A stretch of DNA of 64,000 nucleotides, taken from NCBI RefSeq assembly GCF_003790525.1, contig NZ_CP033635.1; one strand, 5' to 3'. Numbering within the stretch: position 1 is the stretch's first letter; the number at the start of each line of letters is the position of its first letter. A model generated the notes under the pieces. It saw only the letters and a program-made list of their open reading frames with translations. It was not told where the DNA came from and did no database searches. The position numbers and the translations under genes are program-made. Origin of the DNA: Escherichia coli (GTDB lineage: Bacteria; Pseudomonadota; Gammaproteobacteria; Enterobacterales; Enterobacteriaceae). This document shows positions 3,193 through 49,335 of the stretch, piece by piece.

Positions 3193-3277
<85 letters not shown>

Positions 3278-3311
3278 AGGGGTAATTCAAATTTTGAGGT
3301 AATGCTTGAGA

Positions 3312-37818: not shown

Positions 37819-38298
37819 GATGGCATCCTCAAGTGTTAAGTTAATTAACTCACCACCGAGGCTTTCCACGACCATAAGGGTGGCGAGACGTACAGGGGTG
37901 GAAATACCGGTCACTCGAGAACCCGGCCAGCCTTGCAGCTGCCCTGCACGCCCCACCATTATCTGAATGTGGCTGTGCTTAACGCATAAAAAAACCGCTT
38001 CGGCGCGGTTATGCGCTCGAGTAACTTTCGGGTTTCCACGCCCGGCACCCGTTTTATGAGGTGCAGGTGCACTATAATTCCACCCGTACTGGTTTTCAAT
38101 AGCTACATTCAACATTTTCTCTTACCTTTCATCACCGAAGTGAACTTTGTTGATGCGGTGCCAGGTGCCTCCAGGTGACGTTAACCAGTTAACAATTAAC
38201 GCCGGATACAGAGAATCCACCCATAACACTGTTTTTGGTTTTAACTGTTCCGCGTGCGCTGAGCCGCATTCACCACATCACAAAATTCACTTTAAAAA

Positions 38299-38349
38299 GG
38301 GCGGCAGAGCAGTCACGGAGTAAAACTGATACCGCCACGTCACCAGAAA
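38299..38349 (-). ncRNA. dicF: DicF-like small RNA
   Basis: minus strand reads tttctggtgacgtggcggtatcagttttactccgtgactgctctgccgccc, near-identical to the remembered Qin DicF sequence (2-nt difference), followed by a T run. Confidence 0.6.
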
Positions 38350-41923: not shown

Positions 41924-42688
41924 ATGGAGACTGTTTTTGACGCACTGAAAGCGATGGGAAAAGCCACATCGGTAGAACTGGCTACGCGACTTGATATCAG
42001 TCGTGAAGAAGTGCTGAACGAGCTGTGGGAACTCAAAAGAAATGGCGTCGTTGATAAAACTGGTCACACCTGGTTTCTGGCTGGCGAAGGTGAATCCCGG
42101 GTAACCGAAGAGCGACCAGAAAAATCTGAAGCACAGGATATGCTGACCGGGGAGGTTGAACAAAAAGTTACCGCAGACATGATGATTGAGTTTATCAGTC
42201 AGGAGGGGGCTAAAACGTGTGAGGAACTGGCGGGTAAGTTCGGTGTCAGCACTCGCAAGGTTGCTTCCACACTGGCGGTAGTAACCGCAACGGGGCGGCT
42301 GGCACGCGTTAATCGGAACGGTAAATTTCGTTACTGCATGCCGGGCGGTAATTTACCAGCAGAGCCGAAAGCGGCATCGGTAGCGGAAACTGATGGTAAA
42401 GCCTTTCCTCAGCCTGCATGTGTTGCGTTACCAGTACAGGAAGCTGCAACACAGGAAGATATTAAAACAGAAACTGTGGCGGACATTGTGCAGTCGCTGC
42501 CATCGTTCACCGAAACGCGAGCGGATGACCTGATTTTACCATCGCTGCATATGGCAAACCGCGAACTGCGTCGGGCGAAAAGTCATGTCCAGAAGTGGGA
42601 GCGAGTCTGCGCCGCGCTGCGGGAGCTGAATAAATATCGCGATATTGTCGCCCAGCTTTGCCAGGAGGAAACCAGTGAGCAACATTAA
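41924..42688 (+). CDS. hypothetical phage protein with two winged-helix-like segments
   Basis: 254 aa, RBS ggagga; two similar segments ([15 protein letters not shown] and [17 protein letters not shown]). Confidence 0.6.
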
Positions 42689-43244
42689 TTACCAGGCACT
42701 GCGAATGGCGGCAGAAAATGCAACCCCTGGCGAATGGTGTTCTGATGATTACTATGGGGTAATTGCTGATGCCGGACTGAACGCAAATTACTACATAGCA
42801 TCATGCTCAGGACCAGATAATCGCGCTAATAAGCGATTCATAGCAGCAGCCAATCCGGCTACCGTGCTGGCAGTGCTTGATGAACGGGAAGCCCAAAACA
42901 AACGCATTGCTGAACTGGAAATTAATCTTGCTGCACTTGCGGCGGAGAATGCGGGGCTGAAACACGCAATGGCCGTAACTCTTGAGCATGTGTCGGTCAC
43001 GGATGCAGGGCAGGCCGGAGTTGCTGCGATGATTATTAATGATGCCCTGCACCACAGCGAAACGCCAGCTACCGACGCTTTCCTGGCGGAAGTGCGGGCG
43101 CAGGGGGTGGATATGGCTCGTAACGCGATGATTGATTTTGTTGATGGTGAAGTTGGGCCAAACAAGAACGTTCCGGGGCTGATTAGAGGCGCAGAGATAT
43201 GCGTAAGTATTGCTGAACAGCTTCGCAAAGGAGGCAACCAGTGA
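42675..43244 (+). CDS. Ea22/ead-like protein, paralog 1
   Basis: GTG start after RBS aggagga; N-terminus [13 protein letters not shown]; coiled-coil segment [11 protein letters not shown]. Confidence 0.65.
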
Positions 43245-43870
43245 GCGAAATTAATTACCAGGCACTGCGTGAGGCGGCGGAACGTGCAATTCCAGCAATG
43301 GAACGCCTGTTAATGTTGCCAGCTGATGATGATTTGTTAAGTGAACAGGAACTTAAAGATTACGGTGTGGATATTGATGCGCTCAACGCCTTCAAATTTC
43401 TGACCGGACCAGAAACCGTGCTGGCGCTGCTGGATGAACGGGAAAGAAACCAGCAATACATAAAACGCCGTGACCAGGAGAACGAGGATATTGCGCTAAC
43501 GGTAGGGAAGCTGCGCGTTGAGCTGGAAGCCGCAGAGAAGCGCATTGCAGAGCTGGAGGGTAATTTCACGGTGCTGGCAGTGGAGAATGCCTCAATGAAG
43601 CTGTTTATCAGGGGTTGTTGCTACGTGTTTGATGGTCAGCAGGATGAAATATCTGATGCGTATATCTGCGCAACAGACGGAGGGATGCCGCAAACCTCGA
43701 CTACAGATGCTTTCCTGGCTGATGTACGGGCGGTGGCGTTTAACGAGCTTCGCGCGGCGTTTGTCAGGCACGCAAAAGTTGCAGGACTGGATGATGCCGA
43801 TACCGTAACGCTTAAGGAAGTGACAGAAGCATTGTTGCATTGTGCGGAACAGATTCGCGCGCCTGAATAA
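43241..43870 (+). CDS. Ea22/ead-like protein, paralog 2
   Basis: GTGA overlap with paralog 1; N-terminus [13 protein letters not shown]; coiled-coil EKRIAELE. Confidence 0.65.
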   Translation: MSEINYQALREAAERAIPAMERLLMLPADDDLLSEQELKDYGVDIDALNAFKFLTGPETVLALLDERERNQQYIKRRDQENEDIALTVGKLRVELEAAEKRIAELEGNFTVLAVENASMKLFIRGCCYVFDGQQDEISDAYICATDGGMPQTSTTDAFLADVRAVAFNELRAAFVRHAKVAGLDDADTVTLKEVTEALLHCAEQIRAPE

Positions 43871-43965
43871 TTAAATTTAGTGTTGTAAATAAAATTTAAT
43901 CCTTAACCGGAGGGATTTCTGCACCTTCAGAACAGCAGGAGGCCACCCGAAAGGGCGGTAGTGAA

Positions 43966-44148
43966 ATGCGAAAGTTCAAAATAATTATTGAAACTGGAAT
44001 AGCTGGTGGAGATTTTGAGGATGTATTCGAAGTGGACGATGACGCAACACCTGATGAAATTCATGACGAAGCAAAAGAAATTTTCTTTAACTACTGCAAT
44101 TACTCATATCACGAAATAAAAGACGAAGAGGAAGAACAAAATGGCTGA
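43966..44148 (+). CDS. small acidic phage protein
   Basis: 60 aa highly acidic ORF. Confidence 0.4.
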   Translation: MRKFKIIIETGIAGGDFEDVFEVDDDATPDEIHDEAKEIFFNYCNYSYHEIKDEEEEQNG

Positions 44149-44317
44149 TTTTGGTTCAACTAAATACAACGTCAGTTTTGAAGAATGGCATGAACTGTTA
44201 ATGGATTATGCAGAGTTACGTGGTGGAAGTGCTGCTGATGCTGAAGCCTGGCGTGATGACTACGAAGCAGGAAAAACTCCGGTCGAAGCATATTGTGATG
44301 AGTGGGGCGATGAATGA
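44141..44317 (+). CDS. small phage protein
   Basis: 58 aa ORF (MADFGSTKYNVSFEEWHELL...) found by manual translation, below the ORF-track cutoff; overlaps neighbours at both ends (ATGA at 3' end). Confidence 0.4.
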   Translation: MADFGSTKYNVSFEEWHELLMDYAELRGGSAADAEAWRDDYEAGKTPVEAYCDEWGDE

Positions 44318-44829
44318 GCGAGATTAATTATCAGGAAGGGCATGAAATGGCAGGGCAGGCAAAACCAGTTGCATGGCGATATCGCTACGTGAAAAAAGGC
44401 GTTACGGACTTTCAGGAGAAGATGTGGGTTGGTGACTGGAAATATGTACCGACAAAAGAGGATTGCAACGACAGGCCGAGCTATGAGATTCAGGCCTTAT
44501 TCACTGCCCCGTCAGTCCCGGTGACATCAGAAGGACTGGTTAAAGCCGTGCGCTTTTATGAACAGGTAAAGCGTGAGAATCCACCAGTCGAAACAGGAGC
44601 ATGGAAAGATGCTGTTGATTGGGTGCTCAAAGAGGCCTGCTGTGCTGTCATTCTGAGTAAAGCCGACAATCCACTGGCATCCAGTAATCAGGTTGGCGAA
44701 TTAACAATGTGGGTTAAACGACTGGTCAGTCAACTGAAAAAAGCTCAGCCGGACTGCAAATTACCGGAGAAGGCGATGGATTACCTGAAACGAAATGGAC
44801 TGATAAGCGCGGAGGATATTTTACGATGA
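44314..44829 (+). CDS. Ea22/ead-like protein, paralog 3
   Basis: N-terminus MSEINYQEGHEMAG shares the conserved start of the two upstream paralogs; C-terminal part differs. Confidence 0.6.
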   Translation: MSEINYQEGHEMAGQAKPVAWRYRYVKKGVTDFQEKMWVGDWKYVPTKEDCNDRPSYEIQALFTAPSVPVTSEGLVKAVRFYEQVKRENPPVETGAWKDAVDWVLKEACCAVILSKADNPLASSNQVGELTMWVKRLVSQLKKAQPDCKLPEKAMDYLKRNGLISAEDILR

Positions 44830-45033
44830 CCTGGCCTGAAGCATTCACAACGGCAGGAATTGCAATGGCGGAGGCGCTGGTGATGTATTCTATTTGCGGT
44901 TGGGGATAAATCGTTGAAAAAAGCTCCCGACACAAACATGAGTCGGGAGCTTTGATTTATATGGCTTACGAATCCGCCAGCAAGAGAGCGGGCGGACATT
45001 TTATTCTAACACCGGAATTCTGTGGGGACAAGT

Positions 45034-45333
45034 TTATAAGAAATCGGTTTCATAACTTTGTCCGCCATGATAAACACCTGCGATAAAGACTTTATTGTCA
45101 TCAACGGCAAAAGCAATAATCGTTCTGTGGCGGAAATGAGTTACCCGCATCCCCTGGCGAATATCATCGCGTTTATTGCCCCGATGCGGAAATGCAGAAA
45201 ACCCATCAAGATAATCAAGAAGCGCATTGGCATAATTGTCAGCAATGACGCCTCCTGCTTTCTCCGTTATATATCTGTGCAGGTTTATTATCTGCTGTTC
45301 GGCCTCGGGGGTAATGATGACTTCAAATGTCAT
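45034..45333 (-). CDS. parE: type II toxin, RelE/ParE family
   Basis: 99 aa ParE-like pattern; 5 bp downstream of antitoxin gene. Confidence 0.7.
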   Translation of the reverse strand: MTFEVIITPEAEQQIINLHRYITEKAGGVIADNYANALLDYLDGFSAFPHRGNKRDDIRQGMRVTHFRHRTIIAFAVDDNKVFIAGVYHGGQSYETDFL

Positions 45334-45338
45334 GCAGA

Positions 45339-45596
45339 CTACTTCCCGGATCTAATCGCGGCGCGAACCTGTGAAATGGAGCGTCCGTTGTTTGGGTTTT
45401 CGCGGATAGAATCAAGAGAGGGGGCGACTGAATGCGTTAACCACGCTTCGATTGCTTTATCGCGCTCATTCAGTGCGCGAAGCCCTTCACGAATGACCTC
45501 GCTTTCTGAAGCATAGGCACCGGAAGCCACACGGGAGCGCACCATGTCAGCCATCTCGTTAGTTAATGTAATACTGAATTGTTGGGTTGTACGCAT
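45339..45596 (-). CDS. parD: type II antitoxin, ParD/ribbon-helix-helix family
   Basis: start at MRTTQQFSITL (RBS gtgagg); RHH motif SESEVIREGLRALNERDKAIEAWL. Confidence 0.7.
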   Translation of the reverse strand: MRTTQQFSITLTNEMADMVRSRVASGAYASESEVIREGLRALNERDKAIEAWLTHSVAPSLDSIRENPNNGRSISQVRAAIRSGK

Positions 45597-49181: not shown

Positions 49182-49257
49182 GTCCCTTTAGCTCAGTGGT
49201 GAGAGCGAGCGACTCATAATCGCCAGGTCGCTGGTTCAAATCCAGCAAGGGCCACCA
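49182..49257 (+). tRNA. tRNA with CAU anticodon (Ile2/Met-type, ileZ-like)
   Basis: cloverleaf folds by eye: D stem GCTC/GAGC, anticodon loop CTCATAA, T loop TTCAAAT, CCA encoded; one mismatch at pair 2-71. Confidence 0.8.
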
Positions 49258-49258
49258 A

Positions 49259-49335
49259 CCGCCACTAGCTCATCAGGAGAGAGCATCAGCCTTCTAAGCT
49301 GACTGTGCGGGGTTCGAGTCCCCGGTGGCGGTCCA
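49259..49335 (+). tRNA. tRNA-Arg (UCU)
   Basis: cloverleaf folds by eye: D stem GCTC/GAGC, anticodon stem TCAGC/GCTGA, loop CTTCTAA, T stem CGGGG/CCCCG, CCA encoded. Confidence 0.85.

Follow-up and report, generated by a model that had tools for sequence, protein, structure and literature searches.

We examined a block of genes within a 64,000-nucleotide stretch of the Escherichia coli contig NZ_CP033635.1 (assembly GCF_003790525.1), referred to here as the window. The block sits between replication genes and the DUF968/RusA/Q genes (RefSeq annotation, in which an integrase, ompW and DUF1627 are also present). It is probably a variable accessory-gene region within the early rightward operon of a lambdoid prophage, Rac-like in type and integrated beside ompW. 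Three genes with similar starts (ORF1, ORF2 and ORF3) and two interleaved small acidic genes were found, together with the junctions, spacer and hairpin collected in Table 1. Toxin-antitoxin modules were also noted in the region, namely ParE/ParD here and hokD and Doc in relatives. Inside the block, an Rfam scan returned no RNA family, and promoter-like or terminator-like sites were no more frequent than expected.

Table 1. Features of the gene block, with positions counted from the first nucleotide of the window
Feature	Position	Strand	Description
Upstream DUF1627 gene, ydaW-like	41924..42688	+	PF07789 E = 4e-96; RefSeq annotation
Junction/leader copy 1	42663..42723	+	Shine-Dalgarno AGGAGG, 6-nt spacer, GTG start and first 16 codons of ORF1
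ORF1, Ead/Ea22-like	42675..43244	+	GTG start, 189 aa; PF13935 86.3 bits; RefSeq WP_225877566.1
ORF1 parts		+	N-domain type N1, short coiled coil, C-terminal domain C1 ending RKGGNQ
Coiled-coil island, candidate left crossover zone	42899..42961	+	L006 positions 3240-3301 align here and to 43538-43600
Candidate recombination patch	42903..43524	+	ORF1 C-half, gene junction and ORF2 N-half
Junction/leader copy 2	43229..43289	+	AGGAGGCAACCAGTGA; ORF1 stop, Shine-Dalgarno and ORF2 GTG start in one
ORF2, Ead/Ea22-like	43241..43870	+	GTG start, 209 aa; PF13935 108.5 bits
ORF2 parts		+	Lambda Ea22-type N-domain and coiled coil; different C-terminal domain C2 ending IRAPE
Coiled-coil island, candidate right crossover zone	43538..43600	+	KRIAELEGNFTVLAVENASMK; L006 and L003 matches resume here
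Spacer, conserved	43871..43965	+	95 nt; small hairpin between Shine-Dalgarno-like GGAGG and DUF7167 ATG
Small acidic gene, DUF7167	43966..44148	+	60 aa, pI 4.06; PF23768 E = 2e-14
Small acidic gene	44141..44317	+	58 aa, pI 4.05; phrog_519 E = 4.5e-23
ORF3, mosaic	44314..44829	+	ATG start, 171 aa; no Pfam family; phrog_660
ORF3 leader	44314..44355	+	MSEINYQEGHEMAG; Ead-type start fused to non-Ead body
ORF3 module B	44356..44649	+	Residues 15-112
ORF3 module C		+	Begins between residues ~39 and 113 depending on relative, runs to 171 (ends 44826)
Unannotated hydrophobic ORF	44826..44909	+	MTWPEAFTTAGIAMAEALVMYSICGWG; 27 aa; ATGA-coupled to ORF3
Strong hairpin	44920..44953	+	Followed by UUUGAUUUAU; -22.2 kcal/mol, z = -7.8; inverted repeat I2

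An earlier note made from the sequence alone had described the three genes as Ea22-like paralogs, and this description was found to hold for two of them. ORF1 and ORF2 both matched the PF13935 (Ead_Ea22) profile, whose gathering score is 27 bits, with E = 3.8e-24 over model positions 1-139 of 139 for ORF1 and E = 5.1e-31 for ORF2; RefSeq also gives both this name. ORF3 returned no match to PF13935 or any other Pfam family at E <= 1 and no NCBIfam match, and no long helix was seen in its model, which is of low confidence. The pairwise alignment and dN/dS comparison that had been proposed for the paralogs succeeded in part. ORF1 and ORF2 can be aligned over their full length at 32% identity (E = 8e-16), with VLA(V/L)LDERE and the predicted coiled-coil segment KRIAELE.N...LA.ENA in common; their dS of ~1.1 is saturated, which makes the dN/dS of this pair uninformative, so orthologous modules were used instead. 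Judged by dN/dS, the modules are under purifying selection (0.07-0.58 against orthologues, with few substitutions behind these values).

In the AlphaFold2 model of ORF2, an N-domain is followed by a continuous helix of ~70 residues (57-126, pLDDT > 90); after a linker come two C-terminal helices, which are modelled with low confidence. The Ea22 architecture, in which a separate C-terminal domain lies beyond a central coiled coil (PMC10834534), is thus seen in the ORF2 model, and for ORF1 in the alignment only. The C-terminal tripeptide '+GE' (K/R-G-E), given as an Ea22 criterion (PMC7093339), is absent from ORF1 (RKGGNQ), ORF2 (IRAPE) and ORF3 (EDILR). When the ORF2 model was compared with the PDB by Foldseek, no match had E < 0.7, and fold searches with the ORF2 C-terminal domain and ORF3 models, both of low confidence, gave no informative match. 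Sequence searches of solved structures with ORF1, ORF2 and ORF3 returned chance or designed-protein matches only, and PADLOC and NCBIfam returned nothing for the three ORFs or the small ORFs.

On sequence grounds, ORF3 is a mosaic and not an Ead member; in other loci, true Ead proteins have its residues 15-112 as their C-terminal domain. Its module map was built on 120 + 150 homologues, among them a protein (P0105) that joins an Ead N-domain to module B. Likeness between ORF3 and ORF2 is confined to the first ~22 residues (12/22 identical), in agreement with the different C-terminal part first noticed for the third gene. ORF3 was full-length in 294 of 5426 complete E. coli genomes, with dN/dS of 0.20-0.34, values with few substitutions behind them. 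In a related locus (L003), the same upstream DNA and ATGAGCGARATTAATTATCAGG lead into a full 196-aa Ead gene and not into the ORF3 body.

The two interleaved acidic ORFs proved to be real genes, with dN/dS of 0-0.08 against orthologues. The DUF7167 protein is 100% identical in amino acids to its counterparts in L003 and L004, all changes being synonymous. The 58-aa gene overlaps both neighbours, and its stop shares ATGA with the ORF3 start. The 95-nt spacer is conserved in L004, with a modest hairpin fold (z = -1.3 to -2.0). The 27-aa ORF is kept in L003-L006 behind different upstream genes, with an in-frame indel, and the strong hairpin beyond it is likely a terminator closing the gene block. 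In related prophages, slot 1 holds zero, one or two Ead genes and slot 2 shows three allele types. The region is probably organized as two slots for Ead/Ea22-type cassettes, with the two tiny acidic genes as a conserved pair between them. In slot 1, where one Ead gene is the norm, two full-length genes (ORF1 and ORF2) are present here; in slot 2, ORF3 has just the Ead start codons, fused to modules used elsewhere as Ead C-terminal domains.

The three consecutive starts with near-identical N-termini were confirmed. Over 14 residues, 12 identities were counted between ORF1 and ORF2, 9 between ORF2 and ORF3 and 7 between ORF1 and ORF3, and the 21-mer TGAGCGAAATTAATTACCAGG occurred with <=3 mismatches at exactly three sites in the window, which are the three gene starts (0 in 100 shuffles). 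The first two starts lie in a 61-nt direct repeat (42663-42723 and 43229-43289, 85% identical). The motif M-S-x-I-[ND]-Y-Q-x-L-R-x-x-A is carried by ORF1 and ORF2, and ORF3 retains only M-S-E-I-N-Y-Q of it, L9 being replaced by G and R10 by H. The MSxINYQ start could be a by-product at the DNA level, serving as a linker in translation initiation or recombination without a role in the protein, at the head of three functionally unrelated genes. Its junction is indeed conserved behind unrelated upstream genes and ahead of 88 different gene bodies, it survives as a scar after gene deletion, and the ORF3 leader is predicted to be disordered. However, I4, Y6 and L9 do not vary among 69 unique leaders, and Q7, R10 and A13 hardly do, although the codons differ synonymously (dN/dS of 0.34 over codons 3-18), and in the ORF2 model the leader builds helix 6-24 of the N-domain (block-mean pLDDT 83-94). 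The residue conservation together with this helix indicates that in true Ead members the leader is a motif of the protein as well. We therefore consider the by-product explanation unlikely for the three genes as a set; it probably holds for ORF3 only.

The junctions themselves were found to be widespread. Copy 2 is present in 463 E. coli genomes with varied genes upstream. Its 17-mer occurred 127 times in the returned IMG/VR loci, which were chosen by the exact 17-mer and so are not independent, and in ~110 cases the leader came next; 88 distinct gene bodies lay downstream. Two reading frames enter the junction from the genes upstream and end there as ..RKGGNQ* or ..EATSE(Q/R)x*; the final codons of the DUF1627 gene (..QEETSEQH*) are likewise the junction and ORF1 leader read in another frame. 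L004 keeps the junction as a 16-codon Ead 'scar'. Gene boundaries here are conserved DNA junctions, with GGAGGCAACCA-GTGAGC and the leader at the 5' side and AAAGGAGAGTGAnATG or AAAGGAGGCAACCAGTGA at the 3' side. Such junctions would give translational coupling and, we infer, may also supply short homologies for cassette exchange.

This organization bears on the '+GE' motif, the significance of which was left unexplained in its publication (PMC7093339). All 34 unique Ead genes ending in '+GE/D' in the sample have a downstream start -1 to +7 nt from their stop, 33 of the 34 have a Shine-Dalgarno core, and 29/31 unique [KR]G[ED] ends are coded by AAA-GGA-GAG. The ORF1 ending is an equivalent junction, in which AAAGGAGG doubles as the ORF2 Shine-Dalgarno. 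The motif is probably a footprint left by the Shine-Dalgarno/stop/start junction that serves the following gene and not a functional protein motif.

The earlier note had held that pseudogenised paralogs would speak against its reading. In each of the two annotated genomes that were examined, RefSeq does list ORF2 as a pseudogene ('incomplete, missing C-terminus'), yet the frame is intact and its halves end as full-length relatives do. The RefSeq call spans only the first 104 codons of ORF2, apparently because the reference protein shares only the N-module, and the flag is probably an annotation artefact. A broader version of this concern, that the array is junk of a decaying, defective prophage in which ORF2 and perhaps ORF1 and ORF3 are non-functional recombination debris, could draw on frameshifted or truncated Ead genes in related loci (L006, and the scar in L004) and on the LR-31 prophage copy, which is without replication genes. 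It appears improbable, as ORF1, ORF2 and ORF3 are all intact with Shine-Dalgarno sequences and coupled starts, the ORF2 C-half reaches the same natural stop as its 184-aa full-length relatives, a protein 98% identical to ORF2 across all 209 aa (P0121) is found in other assemblies, and module dN/dS is below 1.

Ea22 has three parts, namely an N-region, a coiled coil that is tetrameric and a C-terminal domain that is dimeric and variable, and it favours lysogeny (PMC7093339, PMC10834534, PMC8614690); it is non-essential (PMC10695390). By analogy with the lambda protein, we infer that ORF1 and ORF2 are Ea22-like coiled-coil scaffolds with swappable C-terminal domains, favouring lysogeny. Their N-domain would be helical, with the S-x-I-[ND]-Y-Q-x-L-R motif as its first helix, their coiled-coil stalk would oligomerise and their C-terminal domain would contact a host or phage partner. 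They would act as non-essential early products biasing the lysis-lysogeny decision.

Two further ideas about function were weighed against this analogy. The cassettes could be defence, anti-defence or superinfection-exclusion genes diversified in an arms race, with the acidic mini-proteins as DNA mimics. The hypervariable setting with toxin-antitoxin modules, the extreme diversity of C-terminal domains and the two strongly conserved acidic proteins of pI ~4 are consistent with this idea, but PADLOC matched none of the proteins, a literature search found no link to defence, and the sole experimental data on the Ea22 family are of a pro-lysogenic effect (PMC7093339), so that we regard it as doubtful. 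It is a similarly long shot that Ead/Ea22 proteins form a combinatorial display, in which a common N-domain and stalk would carry conflict-diversified C-terminal effectors shuffled at the junctions and the coiled-coil island. ORF1 and ORF2 might then form mixed oligomers bearing two C-terminal domains at once, given the KRIAELE..ENA segment which they share.

The origin of the ORF1/ORF2 pair was then considered. The earlier note had suggested duplication and diversification. A tandem duplication in situ, by which a single ancestral Ead gene became three copies with later C-terminal divergence, would suit three consecutive genes on the same strand, the shared leaders and 61-nt repeat, and extra DNA of about one gene unit relative to the single-gene allele, but it is largely refuted and very improbable because two proteins only 32% identical with saturated dS have halves 91-98% matched in other elements, the inserted segment matches a plasmid tandem pair without interruption, the arrangement occurs in only 3/5426 genomes, and ORF3 is not an Ead protein, its slot carrying unrelated alleles in other prophages. 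ORF1 and ORF2 are also not each other's closest relatives, as tandem duplicates would be.

The saturated dS, the close counterparts elsewhere, the rarity of the full-length pair (3/5426 complete E. coli genomes) and the plasmid match point instead to a pair built by recombination of long-diverged alleles. Each half of ORF1 and ORF2 has a counterpart of 91-98% identity in other elements. ORF1 matches chromosomal alleles at 96-98% over its 5' half and plasmid alleles at 95% over its 3' 60%, with an overlap of these two groups of matches at gene nt 229-287. Positions 42903-43524 match, at 95.7% and in a single unbroken stretch, the middle of a tandem Ead pair carried by the 92-kb plasmid NZ_CP196102, and 43065-43527 match L008 at 97.6%; from 43538-43600 onward, the match to L003 reaches window position 44362 and that to L006 reaches 44910. 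Related prophages carry a single 184-aa gene made of ORF1 residues 1-95 and ORF2 residues 124-209. A global MAFFT alignment of the pair with the single-gene locus L006 was rejected, since ORF1 fell entirely into a gap and the chimeric structure could not be seen; BLAST segments were used in its place.

The interchangeable C-terminal part proposed at first reading was borne out, as all four N/C combinations exist: N1-C1 in ORF1, N2-C2 in ORF2, N1-C2 in P0126 and N2 with a C1-like end in P0142. A further protein (P0145) is 99% identical to ORF2 residues 1-107 and carries the lambda C-terminal domain. A patch from a tandem Ead pair, as on ~90-kb plasmids with phage-type genes, may have recombined into a single N1-C2 gene, with crossovers that would have fallen in the coiled-coil island, a conserved segment. 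These events are proposed in their direction and order, and deletion from a pair could equally have given rise to the single N1-C2 allele. The explanation as a whole, a variable region of a lambdoid prophage whose Ead pair was assembled by recombination between mobile elements, an event ordinary for such phages, is given a probability of roughly 70%.

The locus offers a clean, datable case in which domains were shuffled as a chromosomal prophage recombined with plasmids bearing phage-type genes. For annotation, mosaic Ead genes may be mis-flagged as pseudogenes when the reference protein shares one module, and sharing a family's start does not make a gene a member of that family. For Ea22 biology, the variable C-terminal domains deserve attention, given '+GE' as a probable junction footprint. 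The family is a known one, and nothing here alters what is known of how Ead/Ea22 proteins act.

Among known systems, lambda Ea22 (NP_040612; exo-xis region, pro-lysogenic, tetrameric, with its C-terminal domain solved by NMR) is 52% identical overall to ORF2. The two have in common the GTGAGCGAAATTAA start, the leader MSEIN(S/Y)QALREAAE and the segment VLxLLDERERNQQYIKRRDQENEDIALTVGKLRVELE, and the ORF2 model has the three-part architecture of lambda Ea22 (PMC10834534). However, the ORF2 C-terminal domain is unlike that of lambda, being without the HRYYGVGG loop and the IRIKGE end. ORF2 is also one of two adjacent family members and lies in a rightward operon after replication genes and DUF1627, whereas lambda ea22 lies between exo and xis in the leftward operon. 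ORF1 spans the whole PF13935 model, in which Pfam includes P22 Ead, and so has a longer N-domain.

The modularity of Ea22 has already been published (PMC7093339, PMC10834534). Mosaic coiled coils with unrelated C-terminal domains have been described for the Ea22 variants of Stx phages (933W, Phi24B, P27), as found here, and the Stx-phage proteins have extra beta-strands in their N-terminal portion (PMC7093339). The Ea22 proteins of lambda and the Stx phages belong to another operon (exo-xis, pL) and have C-terminal domains other than those of ORF1 and ORF2; C1 and C2 (with ...AEQ(L/I)R) are of another type than the Stx-phage domains. In 933W, an insertion split one ea22 gene in two, ea22 and L0065 (PMC8614690), whereas here both resulting genes are complete and have an N-domain, a coiled coil and a C-terminal domain of their own.

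Conserved boundary or linker sequences are a known feature of lambdoid mosaicism (Susskind & Botstein 1978; Clark et al. 2001, as cited in PMC3029335), and phage recombinases perform relaxed homologous recombination (PMC3945230). As in that system, short conserved boundary sequences here flank unrelated gene bodies, and the crossovers appear to lie in conserved islands of 30-60 nt. Unlike boundary linkers, some of these crossovers would be intragenic, within the coiled-coil segment, so that protein domains and not whole genes are shuffled, and the junctions here also encode conserved protein termini.

The three prophage genes ORF1, ORF2 and ORF3 lie exactly where an earlier note had placed them, with the N-termini it had quoted and its two tiny acidic ORFs present between the genes. 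Over 14 N-terminal residues, ORF1 and ORF2 share 12 identities, ORF2 and ORF3 share 9, and ORF1 and ORF3 share 7; a 21-mer from the ORF2 start (up to three mismatches) matched only the three gene starts in the 64 kb and nothing in 100 shuffles. The ORF1 stop and ORF2 start overlap as GTGA. The reading of all three as Ea22-like paralogs was found to hold for ORF1 and ORF2 and to fail for ORF3. Both ORF1 and ORF2 matched Pfam PF13935 (Ead_Ea22; 86 and 108 bits, cut-off 27), in agreement with their RefSeq names, and they aligned over their full length (32% identity, E = 8e-16). ORF3, to which a different C-terminal part had already been ascribed, matched no Pfam or NCBIfam family and could be aligned with ORF2 over only ~22 residues; it falls outside the Ead/Ea22 family.

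Positions of the block and associated features (window coordinates unless a locus is named)
Feature	Position	Strand	Description
isrK-like match	38000-38064	-	below gathering score; clipped at the searched stretch's start (38000)
DicF sRNA	38299-38348	-	Rfam, 65 bits vs gathering score 48
ORF1	42675-43244	+	GTG start, 189 aa; modules N1, C1
ORF2	43241-43870	+	GTG start, 209 aa; modules N2, C2
Spacer	43871-43965	+	95 nt
Small GC hairpin	43939-43968	+	CCACCC-GAAA-GGGCGG, between GGAGG and DUF7167 ATG
First small ORF	43966-44148	+	60 aa
Second small ORF	44141-44317	+	58 aa
ORF3	44314-44829	+	ATG start, 171 aa
Hydrophobic ORF	44826-44909	+	27 aa, MTWPEAFTTAGIAMAEALVMYSICGWG
Strong hairpin	44920-44953		-22 kcal/mol, z = -7.8, then U-rich tail
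ParE/ParD	45034-45333, about 45339-45596	-	convergent pair
Two tRNA genes downstream of Q	49182-49254, 49259-49332	+	Ile, Arg in the matching genome's annotation
ORF2 pseudogene annotation	L001 9842-10153		RefSeq (PGAP), matching prophage
ORF2 pseudogene annotation	L002 12842-13153		RefSeq (PGAP), matching prophage
Ead remnant	L004 3995-4045		16 codons, MSEINYQELQQVKEKA and stop
Lambda ea22, 3' sequence	L009 548-570	-	ATC in place of ATG

The block region was 100% identical to a prophage of E. coli TUM1886 and near-identical in two more complete genomes. The prophage integration site adjoins ompW, and the gene order runs from integrase, excisionase, a large exonuclease and kil through the repressor region, YdaT, a DUF1376 replication protein, a P-like protein and DUF1627 to the studied block, followed by the ParE/ParD pair, DUF968, RusA, Q, and lysis and terminase genes. 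By this order the prophage is lambdoid and Rac-like, and the block lies in its early rightward operon. Scans inside the block found no excess of promoter-like or terminator-like sites and no Rfam family. The strong hairpin that closes it, between the plus-strand genes and ParE/ParD, is likely a terminator missed by the simple scan. It was also noted that the best match in the phage collection was PP818812.1 (Actinobacillus phage vB_Apl-pPE4; 54% of the query, 91% identity), a host label unexpected for an E. coli lambdoid-type sequence.

Both small ORFs are acidic (pI ~4.05) and nearly invariant in protein against synonymous change (dN/dS 0-0.08), and one of them is Pfam DUF7167. The small GC hairpin, which has a perfect stem in the related prophage locus L004 (CCGCCC-GGCA-GGGCGG), might draw the Shine-Dalgarno nearer the DUF7167 start, with folding z-scores of only -1.3 and -2.0. 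The 27-aa hydrophobic ORF is coupled to ORF3 through ATGA and absent from the RefSeq annotation. Its reading frame persists, with an in-frame indel, in four further prophages whose upstream genes differ, and it may encode a small membrane protein.

Homologues of ORF2 formed more than 8000 clusters at 90% identity, many with the first ~106 residues 97-100% identical and then unrelated C-terminal parts of varied length, DUF551 among them. All four combinations of N- and C-terminal modules were found, with the common 184-aa protein P0126 joining N1 to C2 and P0142 joining N2 to a module with a C1-like end, which agrees with the interchangeable C-terminal part previously proposed. In slot 1, the Ead gene position before the two acidic genes, related prophages (L003) carry a single 184-aa gene made of ORF1 residues 1-95 and ORF2 residues 124-209. 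The DNA of the related locus L006 matches 42657-42961 and then 43538-44910, and its coiled-coil segment can be aligned to both window copies. The stretch 42903-43524 spans the C-half of ORF1, the junction between the two genes and the N-half of ORF2. It matched as a single piece, at 95.7% identity, the central part of a tandem Ead pair carried by the 92-kb plasmid NZ_CP196102, and the plasmid locus L008 was 97.6% identical to 43065-43527. Among 5426 complete E. coli genomes, just 3 had ORF1 or ORF2 at full length, with parts of ORF1 in 502 and parts of ORF2 in 2347. Synonymous divergence between ORF1 and ORF2 was saturated, so that the dN/dS comparison proposed earlier is uninformative for this pair.

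The plasmid-pair match, the rarity, the saturated dS and the single-gene N1-C2 allele show the ORF1/ORF2 pair to be the product of homologous exchange between long-diverged alleles, with crossovers in the conserved KRIAELE..ENA island. Duplication in place followed by diversification, which the near-identical starts had suggested, is not borne out. The reverse course, in which a pair was reduced to the single gene by deletion, is a possible alternative; whichever order of events applies, ORF1 and ORF2 are not each other's closest relatives. A comparable insertion, splitting an ea22 gene, has been described in phage 933W (PMC8614690). Tandem Ead/Ea22 pairs with 4-nt overlaps were further noted on E. 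coli plasmids (L007, L008 and L010, 92-143 kb; other plasmid matches 89-156 kb) alongside the phage-type genes DUF968, DUF551, eaa and metallophosphoesterase. Segments of plasmids with such pairs were 94-98% identical to this chromosomal prophage, which points to gene flow between lambdoid prophages and plasmids that bear phage genes.

Pseudogenised paralogs were one outcome that, according to the earlier note, would count against it, and RefSeq (PGAP) does flag ORF2 as an 'incomplete' Ead gene 'missing C-terminus', covering the first 104 codons only. Yet the 209-codon frame is intact, its C-half uses the same natural stop as the 184-aa proteins, a 209-aa protein 98% identical to ORF2 is found in other assemblies, and the modules gave dN/dS of 0.08-0.58 against their nearest relatives. 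Because of the frame, the shared stop and the 98% identical protein, ORF2 is probably no pseudogene, and the flag is probably an artefact of a reference protein with only the N-module in common.

Homologue mapping showed ORF3 to be a mosaic of a leader (residues 1-14), module B (15-112; found behind at least 8 other N-termini) and module C (onset ~39 to 113 among relatives, through 171; found behind yet other N-termini). In the homologous proteins P0105 and P0082, module B follows a true Ead N-domain and ends ..IKGE. ORF3 is without the Ead N-domain and coiled coil, and in its model (mean pLDDT 67) the leader (1-13) is disordered and the rest includes a small sheet of three strands (20-62) and helices. 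Three alleles fill slot 2, the position after the acidic genes, in other prophages: the 171-aa type, one of 119-120 aa, and a complete Ead/Ea22 gene of 196 aa, each with common upstream DNA and the ATGAGCGARATTAATTATCAGG start. ORF3 thus has a cassette boundary in common with Ead genes and contains a module that in Ead proteins serves as C-terminal domain. Full-length ORF3 was found in 294 genomes, under purifying selection (dN/dS 0.20-0.34).

The 5' junction, (a/c)GGAGGCAACCA-GTGAGC, preceded every slot-1 Ead start examined, behind DUF1627, DUF4406, another Ead gene or hypothetical genes. An exact 17-mer scan of IMG/VR gave at least 127 occurrences, the leader following in about 110 of the matches listed, with at least 88 distinct gene bodies downstream. 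Because upstream genes in the matches listed read the junction in two frames (ending ..RKGGNQ or ..EATSE(Q/R)x before the stop), its conservation seems to be at the nucleic-acid level. The Ead remnant after DUF4406 in L004 keeps the 5' junction and 3' flank and is therefore a deletion scar of a cassette. In a set of 69 unique leaders, positions I4, Y6 and L9 never change and Q7, R10 and A13 hardly do, while synonymous differences occur (dN/dS 0.34). In the ORF2 model the leader makes up the first helix; it is a protein motif as well as a DNA junction.

At the 3' junction, the ..IRIKGE ends of Ead genes are encoded by ATTCGCATCAAAGGAGAGTGA(T/G)ATG, and 29/31 unique [KR]G[ED] ends use AAA-GGA-GAG. 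A start codon lies -1 to +7 nt from the stop in 34/34 unique '+GE/D' ends and a Shine-Dalgarno core within the last 16 nt in 33/34; other endings have them in 19/29 and 14/29. In the IMG/VR loci (L011-L130), the C-terminal '+GE' of Ea22 is encoded by AAAGGAGAGTGAnATG, the next gene's Shine-Dalgarno, stop and start. Lambda ea22 keeps the 3' sequence, but with the altered start codon and no coupled gene after. The significance of the '+GE' tripeptide has been called unknown (PMC7093339); given these codons and counts, it would most simply be a coding shadow of the Shine-Dalgarno/stop/start junction, an explanation for which no statement was found in the cited literature.

The family membership of ORF1 and ORF2, the modular structure and the recombinant origin of the pair are shown by these comparisons, and we place the probability of this identity and origin at about 85%. 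Coupling signals were observed at the gene boundaries, and the modules are under purifying selection. The block genes would share a transcript with the early rightward operon, their translation being coupled, and ORF1 and ORF2 may oligomerise through the coiled coil and offer their C-terminal domains to partners. Much more tentative is their specific function, which by analogy with Ea22 of lambda and Stx phages, a non-essential (PMC10695390) modulator of the lysis-lysogeny decision (PMC7093339), might be that of dispensable modulators. What is new is the rare allele combination with a clear reconstruction of its origin, the reclassified ORF3, the likely mis-called pseudogene and the candidate junction explanation of '+GE'.

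The Ead/Ea22 family is known, as are the modularity of its C-terminal domains and lambdoid mosaicism, and two of the genes already have RefSeq names. Lambda Ea22 is 52% identical to ORF2, with the GTGAGCGAAATTAA start, the leader and the VLxLLDERERNQQYIKRRDQENEDIALTVGKLRVELE stretch in common. The AlphaFold2 model of ORF2 (helical N-domain 6-54, a single 70-residue helix 57-126 with pLDDT > 90, a poorly modelled linker and two C-terminal helices) agrees with the published plan of an N-region, a tetramerising coiled coil and a separate C-terminal domain (PMC10834534, PMC8614690). Cassettes and domains would be exchanged at the conserved junctions and islands, in keeping with relaxed recombination by phage recombinases (PMC3945230) and with the boundary-sequence model (PMC3029335 and references therein).
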